A stretch of 64,000 bases of DNA. Origin: a virus. Lineage: Duplodnaviria > Heunggongvirae > Uroviricota > Caudoviricetes. The stretch is taken from the IMG/VR virus record IMGVR_UViG_2913112809_000002; one strand, given 5' to 3'. A program made the position numbers. This document shows positions 43,619 through 46,600 of the stretch, in pieces; the first letter of the stretch is position 1; each line of letters opens with the position of its first letter.

Positions 43619-46600
43619 ACCCGCTCCATAGTAGTAAGGCGAGATTGTGTTATGCACTGACACATTATATATGTGGGGATGGTTTTTGGCCTCTTTATCC
43701 ACGTCCCGTTCTGTAATGAGTGATACCAATTGCAGTCCAGTGCTATTTTTTTACACCATCGGAATGGTGCATCATCCCGATGTTGTAAACATCGCTAAAC
43801 GTGACATTGAGATTAATCATATATTAATCAAAATCTGGTAATACATCCTTAACCGCCGAACCAGGCGGTTTTTTTTATTTCTTCTCCGGACAAAAAAAAG
43901 ACACGAGCATCCTGGAATACTCGTGGGACAAGGTACTTGGTTAGCAATTTGCGAGAGGGTGAAAAAAATGGCGCGGCTGTCGGATTAAAGCCGCGGGACA
44001 AAGTCCATGAAGAATAATAAGTATCAGTCTCCTACAGGAGACGAGTTGATATTACTAAGCTTTAAAAATGGTTTAAATCCTCAGATTAACCTTAATTTCA
44101 GGTAAGTCTTATTTCATTTCTTCGCGCCGCGCCCGGCGCACATCAAAAACCACAGAGCCTTTCAGGGGTGAGCTTACGGGATGGTCAGTGTGACTTTCTC
44201 TGTGGGCTGGTCACTCCTGGGGCGCAGGCTCACCCACTAAAAGGAAAAGTCACGATGTTTGGTATTTTCAAAAAGAAAACCCGCAAGGCCATTACCGAAG
44301 TGAAGAAGATGGAGAACCGCGACGCAGTGGAGGCGACCGTCTGGGGTGCGTATTCCATTGCATACGCTGACGGCACCTGTGACGCGAAAGAAATCGCGGT
44401 ACTGGAGAAAACCATTGCAGCACTTCCTGCCTTTGCGCCGTTCTCCGGTGAGATTGCACAAATGAGCGCAAATATCCGCGCCCGTTATGAAGCGTCACCG
44501 CGTAGCGCGAATGCTCAGGCATTGCGTGAACTGGCTGATGTGGCAGGAACAGACGACGCGGTGAATGTGCTGTGCCTGTGTCTGGATATCGCTGACCAGG
44601 ATGGAATTGGTCCGGAGGAAGAAGCACAACTCAAGAAAATTGCTCAGGCGCTTCAGCTACCGCTGGAGCAGTACCTGTGAAAAGTGCGCGCCTTGTGCTG
44701 GCTGCCATCCTGCTGTTTCTGGTAGTGGCGGTGGATTTCACCGGACGGCTGATGTCGGTGCTGGCAGATGGTGTGCTGGTGGCGATGGTGCTGGTCGTGC
44801 TCCGGCCTTTACTGCGCAAATCTGAATAACACCACACAAAAGGCATCTGCGGGTGCCTTTGACGGGGTGTTGTTTTTTACGGGCCGCTGGTGGCCCTTTT
44901 TTATTTGCAGGAGAAGTTATGGCAGCAGAACCTTGTCTGGTGGCGGGGCGGTGGGGCTGACGATAGGTGGAGCCAGTGTATTCGGGATTCTGACCAACAC
45001 CGATTTCGGCGTGGTTATTGGCGCGTTTGCAGGGGCGCTTTTTGTTGTCACACAGCAAAAGGAAGTGCCTGTCTGGCGGATGTGTATCCACCTGCTGGTT
45101 GCTTTCGTGGTTGGCGTACTTGGTGCGGGTGTGGCTGCGTCTTTCATGCAGTGGTTAACGCACTACGACGACAAGCCACTGGACGCTCTGTGTGCGGTTG
45201 GTGTTTCAGCCCTGTCAATTAAGGCGCTGACGTTCCTGTATCAGCAGGAGATTACATCGCTGTTCGGTTTTCTGACGAAGCTGCGCGGCGGAGGAGGAGG
45301 AAATGGTAAGTGATGTTGCCGGGCAGGTGAATGTATTCGTCTGTGTGGCTGTTGTGCTGGGATTGCTCGTGTTCCGGTGGAGGGATGCGGCCCACAAACC
45401 CGTCATGGCCTGGCTGACTTATCTGCTGATGCTGGGATACGCAATTATTCCGCTGCGCTGGCTTTACGGTACCTACATGCAGTCGAGCTGGCTGGTCGTG
45501 GTGCTGAATCTTGTTTTCTGCGCACTGATAGTCTGGTCGCGTGGAAACGTATCAAAAATTATTTCATTACGGAGGTGAGTATGCCGGGGAAATTCAGATT
45601 CAGTCGTCGTAGCGAAAAAAATCTGGAGGGCGTCAAACCACAGCTGGTTGCCGTTGTTCGCCGTGCGCTGGAACTGACGGATGTTGATTTCGGTATTACG
45701 GAAGGTCTGCGCACGAAAGAACGCCAGAAACAGCTGGTTGCTGAAGGAAAAAGCCAGACCATGAACAGCCGCCACCTGACCGGTGATGCGGTGGATGTTG
45801 TGGCCTACATTGGCAGCCAGGTGTCATGGGACTGGCCTCTGTACGAGAAAATCGCGCATGCATTTAAGCAGGCTGCCGCAGAGCTGGGAACTGCCATCGA
45901 ATGGGGTGGGGACTGGCGGACGCTTAAAGACGGCCCACATTTTCAATTGAAACGATAGCTTGCAAAACATACAGGGCCGCCATGAGCGGCTTTTTTATTG
46001 CTCAAAAAACGAAAGAACGGAGGTACGTATGTACGCACTGAAAAAAATTACGGTAACTGAAGATGGTCGCCAGGTTGAGGAAGTGCATGTCCTGGGGGAT
46101 ATGTATCGTCTGGAATTTTACCCGCGTAATACCCATCTTGCAGCGCAGGTTGAGTATTGTCGGGACGGGAATATTCCATGCATTTCTGTAGAAAAAACGG
46201 ATGAGGCTTATATCACTACGCTGAATGGCGATACGGTGCGTTGCATTTGTCGCGGTGACAGCAAAGCCCGGAATGAAATAGCCAGATGTCGCGCCCATAC
46301 AGATAAATAAAAAGCAAAATACAAGGCTGCAACGAGTGGCCTTGTTTATCTCAGCACTTCGCACGGTGCGCATAAAACAGAGAATCTTTCAGGATGAGCC
46401 TTGAGGAAAACCGGTAGTGGTCTGGTTAACCCTCTCTGGCTGGTTATTCCTGTGCGCAAGGTTCATCACTAAAAGGAATAAACCATGAACGAGATGATTT
46501 CTGTCGATCATGAAATATCCATGAGCAGTCTGGACTTCCTGAATAACATTATTAATCCAGCTCGTATAGAGGCTGGAGAAGTCCCTCACGAACCGCGTAA

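Follow-up and report, generated by a model that had tools for sequence, protein, structure and literature searches.

Why does the strongest ribosome-binding site of a phage lysis cassette serve a reading frame of only 13 codons? The question arises in the window analysed here, a 64,000-nucleotide stretch of DNA from a Caudoviricetes virus (IMG/VR record IMGVR_UViG_2913112809_000002), in which a first-pass annotation had described an unusual lysis cassette and had proposed a leader peptide, a frameshift or a sequencing error to account for the short frame. The reading favoured here, at a probability of about 90%, is that the 13-codon ORF is the true 5′ end of a phiP27-type holin gene and that a C missing from it is an Ion Torrent homopolymer undercall, not a property of the organism. 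The real genome would then encode a 131-aa holin from holin gene 1.

Genes of the cassette and the frame at its start

The cassette comprises two predicted holin genes, a peptidase endolysin gene and a gene for a Cys-rich protein (Table 1), and Pfam, PHROGs and hydrophobicity all agree with its first description as two multi-TM holin-like proteins followed by an M15 endolysin and a Cys-rich soluble protein. With the missing base restored, holin 1 matches Pfam Phage_holin_8 at 81.2 bits (cut-off 26.4; profile positions 2-121 of 121 at residues 3-125) and the holin family phrog_198 at 1e-37. Holin 2 matches PF05449 at 59.5 bits (cut-off 25.4; profile positions 1-79 of 80) and the holin family phrog_217. 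Kyte-Doolittle scans give about four hydrophobic segments for holin 1 and about three for holin 2, and both products are small, have at least one TMD and are encoded beside the endolysin gene, as expected of the holin class to which we assign them by prediction. The endolysin matches Peptidase_M15_4 (PF13539) at 47.1 bits (cut-off 25) and phrog_465 at 2.5e-74, and its closest relatives in the PDB are L-alanyl-D-glutamate endopeptidases (8q2g, 2.3e-43; T5 Lys 2mxz, 5e-24). It contains H65, D72 and H120 in an H-x6-D...H pattern, which we take to be the Zn ligand positions by analogy with T5 Lys. The 93-aa Cys-rich protein has no match in Pfam or NCBIfam; hairpins lie upstream of its gene at 45973-45993 and, by eye only, downstream at about 46315-46345, and the protein is probably a moron.

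Judging from these families, Q-dependent late transcription would pass through the upstream terminators, the Phage_holin_8 and Phage_holin_3_7 proteins would build up in the inner membrane, opening holes that would let out the cytoplasmic M15 L-Ala-D-Glu peptidase, which would then cleave peptidoglycan. The endolysin has neither a signal nor a SAR sequence, so holin holes would be needed for it to reach the wall.

Table 1 Features of the lysis region and single-nucleotide indels between the two E4742 assemblies, in window coordinates
Feature	Position	Strand	Remarks
Indel, window T7, PacBio T6	39505		Outside called genes
Indel, window A6, PacBio A5	39862		ORF6N: 70 + 121 aa in window, 185 aa in PacBio
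Indel, window GG, PacBio GGG	41656		DUF968: 186 + 96 aa in window, 329 aa in PacBio
Indel, window T8, PacBio T7	43869		Outside called genes
Indel, window A8, PacBio A7	43892		Outside called genes
Indel, window CC, PacBio CCC	44931		Holin: broken in window, 131 aa in PacBio
Terminator-like hairpin GGGCC-GCTGGT-GGCCC, then TTTTTTATTT	44881..44906	+	Stem 44881-44896 plus T-run; directly 5′ of holin ribosome-binding site
Holin Shine-Dalgarno AGGAGA	44909..44914	+	Same in E. coli E423, NRZ103545, PSS-15, phiP27 and Stx2k phage
13-codon ORF: holin codons 1-4 (MAAE), 9 out-of-frame codons, TGA	44919..44960	+	Homologues read MAAEPLSGGGAVG... from same ATG
CC run, should be CCC (Pro codon 5 of holin; one base missing)	44931..44932	+	Allele comparison
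Holin gene 1, Phage_holin_8, 131 aa with missing C restored	44919..45313	+	PF16931, phrog_198, WP_138159154.1
Holin gene 2, Phage_holin_3_7, 91 aa, about 3 TMDs	45303..45578	+	11-nt overlap with holin gene 1
M15 L-alanyl-D-glutamate peptidase endolysin, 125 aa	45581..45958	+	PF13539, phrog_465; no signal or SAR sequence
Cys-rich protein, 93 aa, 6 Cys, no TMD	46029..46310	+	phrog_33497 (function unknown)
44-aa single-TMD protein	47274..47408	+	phrog_4906 (function unknown); gene overlaps start of lipoprotein ORF
60-aa lipoprotein, lipobox LLAG/C, mature part 30 aa with 3 Cys	47413..47595	+	phrog_7528

Direct reading of the window places the Shine-Dalgarno sequence 4 nt ahead of an ATG at 44919-44921, from which the frame runs ATG GCA GCA GAA CCT TGT CTG GTG GCG GGG CGG TGG GGC TGA, giving MAAEPCLVAGRWG*, 13 codons that end at a stop at 44958-44960. 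One base behind this frame lies that of the membrane protein, shared with the ORF at 44768-45313; there is no ATG in it close to the ribosome-binding site, and TTG 44933 and GTG 44951 are its sole candidate starts there. The observation that raised the question, an AGGAGA at about 44909 serving ATG 44919 and a 13-codon ORF off the membrane-protein frame, is thus confirmed. G-runs lie at 44945-44948 and 44953-44956. We do not take the 181-aa ORF from ATG 44768 to be a gene, since it crosses terminator hairpins and overlaps the DUF3927 gene upstream.

Homologous loci place the start of holin gene 1 at ATG 44919. Three E. coli chromosomes (E423, NRZ103545 and PSS-15) carry the cassette at 94-97% DNA identity and are annotated with a 131-aa ‘putative holin’ (WP_086590378.1) from the equivalent ATG, and in every homologue examined a Phage_holin_8 protein of the same length starts at this codon. 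The more distant holins of phiP27 (L28) and phiSTEC1575-Stx2k, at 55-56% identity to holin 1, keep the GAACCCTT motif and an N-terminus M-x-EPLSG, and their loci retain the hairpin, the T-run, AGGAGA and the ATG. The Phage_holin_8 profile leads to the same start, as its position 2 aligns at residue 3 once the protein is repaired, and the family N-terminus therefore falls at ATG 44919. As written in the window, the Phage_holin_8 frame is not intact from this N-terminus. The sole frame-relevant difference in the DNA alignment is at 44931-44932, where GAACCCTTG of the homologues is reduced to GAACCTTG in the window: one C is missing from Pro codon 5, so translation from the correct ribosome-binding site and ATG leaves the frame and stops after 13 codons. 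The first-pass annotation had suspected the G-runs at 44944-44956 as the site of an error, but these are the same in all sequences aligned; nor does any homologous holin examined start at 44951 behind an independent upstream ORF, the arrangement that it had named as the alternative.

The same comparison bears on a regulatory role for the short ORF, whether as a functional leader peptide, as an upstream ORF or as part of a programmed −1 frameshift site (slippage at G GGG, 44944-44948) that would control holin synthesis. The strong ribosome-binding site sits on the short ORF, and G-runs and a rare CGG codon precede its stop, as such a device might require. However, the short ORF is absent as a separate conserved ORF from every homologous locus examined, where a continuous holin ORF runs from the ATG instead, and no frame change is conserved among the homologues, none of which would need one; the arrangement is confined to the Ion Torrent draft data of one strain. 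An Rfam search of 42000-48000 at gathering thresholds returned the two tRNAs only and no known RNA element in the leader, and the RNA fold of 44835-44965 is not unusual (z = -0.03). We therefore regard regulation by the short ORF as extremely improbable, and the leader peptide drops out of the explanations offered at the outset.

Origin of the missing base

At 100% identity, the window matches contig PDHY01000019.1, part of GCA_004745255.1, an assembly of Escherichia sp. E4742, a cryptic clade II strain that came from sediment of the intertidal zone in Hong Kong. For this draft, single-end Ion Torrent reads (35-400 bp, 50x) were put together by MIRA and SPAdes; CONTIGuator supplied the order, and gaps were closed manually (PMC6639607). 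The strain was resequenced on PacBio RSII at 172x, and Canu assembled these data into one contig of 5,120,753 bp (PMC7716201). The PacBio genome (VATS01000001.1) has CCC at the site and encodes an intact 131-aa holin, WP_138159154.1.

Alignment of the two assemblies extends over about 17.6-17.7 kb, and across the compared span, window positions 38318-55958, the differences are six 1-nt homopolymer-length indels, with no substitutions (Table 1). Three of the six fall in genes (ORF6N, DUF968 and the holin), and in all three cases the gene is broken in the Ion Torrent version only; the Pfam domains of ORF6N and DUF968 are cut mid-way in the window and complete in the PacBio genome. Ion Torrent consensus sequence is known for errors in homopolymer length. 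On sequence comparison, the indels show the pattern of a platform error; mutations arising independently three times in one prophage between the two DNA preparations would not be expected to give it. The assemblies also part company to the left of window position ~38259, where the DNA of the PacBio prophage differs from the window, and the join of two prophage segments (A and B) at ~37.9-38.3 kb is probably chimeric.

The distribution of the two alleles follows the source of the data. Among the data searched, CC occurs only in the window and PDHY01000019.1 and in the Logan assembly of SRR6148341; other contigs of this run match the window at 100% over 13.2 kb and 5.7 kb, and it is probably the read set behind the E4742 draft. 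CCC is found in the Logan assemblies of SRR9056840 and SRR6024549, neither of which differs from the window elsewhere, in each of the four complete E. coli genomes with this N-terminal variant (matches of 77 nt to a 76-nt query) and in the single match from a scan of metagenome contigs. A scan of bacterial contigs, one genome per species, matched neither allele and is uninformative, and look-ups of Logan contigs over the other five indel sites (through TerB and RusA) gave nothing beyond the two NCBI assemblies and an unrelated run. At the protein level, 131 aa is the norm in the 90% cluster, whose representative is found on 275 contigs, and the 181-, 126- and 120-aa holin versions all come solely from the 115,753-bp draft contig.

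We note several observations that run against an artefact. Consensus errors of Ion Torrent are rarer in homopolymers as short as CC or CCC than in long ones. CC is reproduced by both the submitters’ assembler and that of Logan, so the reads themselves favour it. The Canu assembly of the PacBio data may hold indel errors too, its shorter A/T runs making up four of the six differences.

A real deletion in the subculture sequenced on Ion Torrent would leave holin gene 1 either as a pseudogene or as the source of a shortened protein from TTG 44933 (126 aa) or GTG 44951 (120 aa), perhaps through reinitiation once the 13-codon ORF has been read, its stop (44958-44960) being just beyond GTG 44951. 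Two pipelines assemble CC from apparently one read set, as such a deletion predicts; NCBI RefSeq and another gene caller do use these in-frame starts, for the 126-aa WP_167850656.1 and a 120-aa model; and loss of a holin could be selected in culture with spontaneous prophage induction. Yet the strain’s PacBio genome reads CCC at the site, neither TTG 44933 nor GTG 44951 has a good Shine-Dalgarno sequence at the right spacing, and the draft has two more frame-breaking homopolymer indels in neighbouring genes and no substitutions, exactly the kind of error for which Ion Torrent is known. A deletion in the subculture is accordingly improbable, and the homopolymer undercall is preferred: the homologue alignment, the PacBio allele, the platform and the indel pattern all support the frameshift and sequencing error that had been among the original options.

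The main value of this result is caution, since the frameshift itself holds no new biology. The platform artefact has already yielded three wrong public protein models (the 181-aa ‘holin’ TGB60325.1, the 126-aa WP_167850656.1 and the 120-aa call), and the same draft has at least two further frameshifts nearby, at 39862 and 41656. Findings from the window that depend on broken frames, on split genes or on segments A and B lying side by side need comparison with the PacBio genome of E4742.

The spanin question

The first-pass annotation also saw no Rz/Rz1-like spanin, and for canonical spanins this stands. Searches of Pfam, PHROGs and NCBIfam with the ORFs of 45958-49031 and the ORFs inside the endolysin gene found none, and Phage_lysis (PF03245) had no match among the segment-B proteins scanned. 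A match to NCBIfam spanin2 was sub-threshold (13.9 bits against a cut-off of 100), and an Rz-like match to phrog_6954 was a 20-residue fragment in an unlikely ORF. The claim does not extend to a small TM protein and a lipoprotein that sit 1.3-1.6 kb downstream. The lipoprotein has 82% identity to the ORF at 20706-20861 of NC_003356 (phiP27), which Kongari et al. (2018) list, by computational assignment, as the ‘separated’ o-spanin of phiP27, the phage with the shortest periplasmic spanin span in their set, 62 aa (PMC6139136). By homology, the lipoprotein and this catalogued o-spanin of phiP27 are thus orthologues.

A matching i-spanin, with an N-terminal TMD and a long enough periplasmic domain, was not found beside it; the only adjacent TM protein is the one of 44 aa. 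This partner has its TMD at the N-terminus here, and in E. coli E423 and the Stx2k phage it has 37 aa with the TMD at the C-terminus. A pair this short probably cannot span the periplasm as Rz-Rz1 does, so that a different mechanism would be required if the pair acts as a spanin. One tentative and rather unlikely proposal is that the outer-membrane step of phiP27-type lysis, whose cassettes have no canonical spanin, is carried out by the tiny lipoprotein, with its 30-aa, three-Cys mature part, together with an exchangeable tiny TM partner.

Comparison with known lysis systems

The pair resembles lambda Rz/Rz1 in that a lipoprotein with a lipobox and Cys lies beside a small TM protein downstream of the lysis genes. 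Unlike lambda Rz/Rz1, its TM partner has no periplasmic coiled-coil domain, its mature lipoprotein is only 30 aa long, and two other genes separate it from the endolysin gene. The endolysin shares the M15C fold family, by sequence, with the T5 endolysin 2mxz, with 8q2g and with ChiX 5opz (E = 5e-24 to 2e-43); unlike T5 Lys, it comes from a temperate lambdoid prophage and its activity is predicted.

The closest counterparts of the cassette as a whole are those of phiP27, an Stx2e phage (L28 holin, L29 holin and L30 endolysin), and of phiSTEC1575-Stx2k, which have the same order, Phage_holin_8, Phage_holin_3_7 and M15 peptidase, and endolysin DNA about 88-91% identical to that of the window. As in the window, a 93-aa gene follows the endolysin gene in phiSTEC1575-Stx2k and a small lipoprotein is encoded downstream in both phages. 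The window differs in an Ant gene inserted between the 93-aa gene and the TM/lipoprotein pair, and in TerB and DUF3927/TciB morons, which lie downstream of Q and two tRNA genes at the position that stx occupies in phiP27 and the Stx2k phage. The cassette first described as unusual is therefore one of the ordinary phiP27-type lysis modules, already known from phiP27 and the Stx2k phage.

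Join between segments A and B

The draft contig (Ion Torrent assembly of Escherichia sp. E4742) is probably chimeric where prophage segments A and B meet. At 37880-38320 the leftward early operon of segment A joins the nin region of segment B, an arrangement that receives no support from this strain's PacBio genome, in which B's own early genes (YdaT, HTH_36, DUF977 and Ead) occupy the join position. Eleven mismatches clustered at 38268-38317 mark the switch, and the Logan contig of SRR6148341, probably the same Ion Torrent read set, ends at window position 37933. According to the genome announcement, draft gaps were closed by hand (PMC6639607).

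Prophage A itself may be absent from the PacBio assembly, or different there, because a 187-aa segment A protein was detected only in the draft and in SRR6148341, with no match in the PacBio assembly, and the draft genome is 74.5 kb larger than the PacBio genome (PMC6639607, PMC7716201).

Homopolymer differences and gene models

Three differing holin models, all wrong, stand in public databases because a C is missing in the draft sequence. Two further 1-nt homopolymer differences split two segment B genes in the window, each with its Pfam domain interrupted mid-way: at 39862 the window has A6 versus A5 in PacBio (ORF6N gene, 70 + 121 aa versus 185 aa), and at 41656 GG versus GGG (DUF968 gene, 186 + 96 aa versus 329 aa).

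Gene models and other features of the window
Feature	Window position	Length (aa)	Remark
TGB60325.1	44768-45313	181	Wrong holin model; extends through upstream terminator
WP_167850656.1	44933-45313	126	Wrong holin model; TTG start
Holin call	44951-45313	120	Wrong holin model
Segment A protein	36798-37361	187	
Hok/Gef-family toxin gene	40499-40654	51	
TerB-like and DUF3927/TciB-like genes	44255-44829	141 and 50	
Small TM protein and lipoprotein genes	47274-47595	44 and 60	Overlapping

Accessory genes and related phages

The nin region of segment B contains a Hok/Gef-family toxin gene. Further along, a TerB-like gene and a DUF3927/TciB-like gene are flanked by the Q/tRNA-Thr/tRNA-Gly region and the holin; in phiP27 and phiSTEC1575-Stx2k, two phages with the same type of lysis cassette, stx genes sit in this slot. 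A gene for a small TM protein overlaps that for a lipoprotein, whose orthologue in phiP27 is the catalogued o-spanin of that phage.
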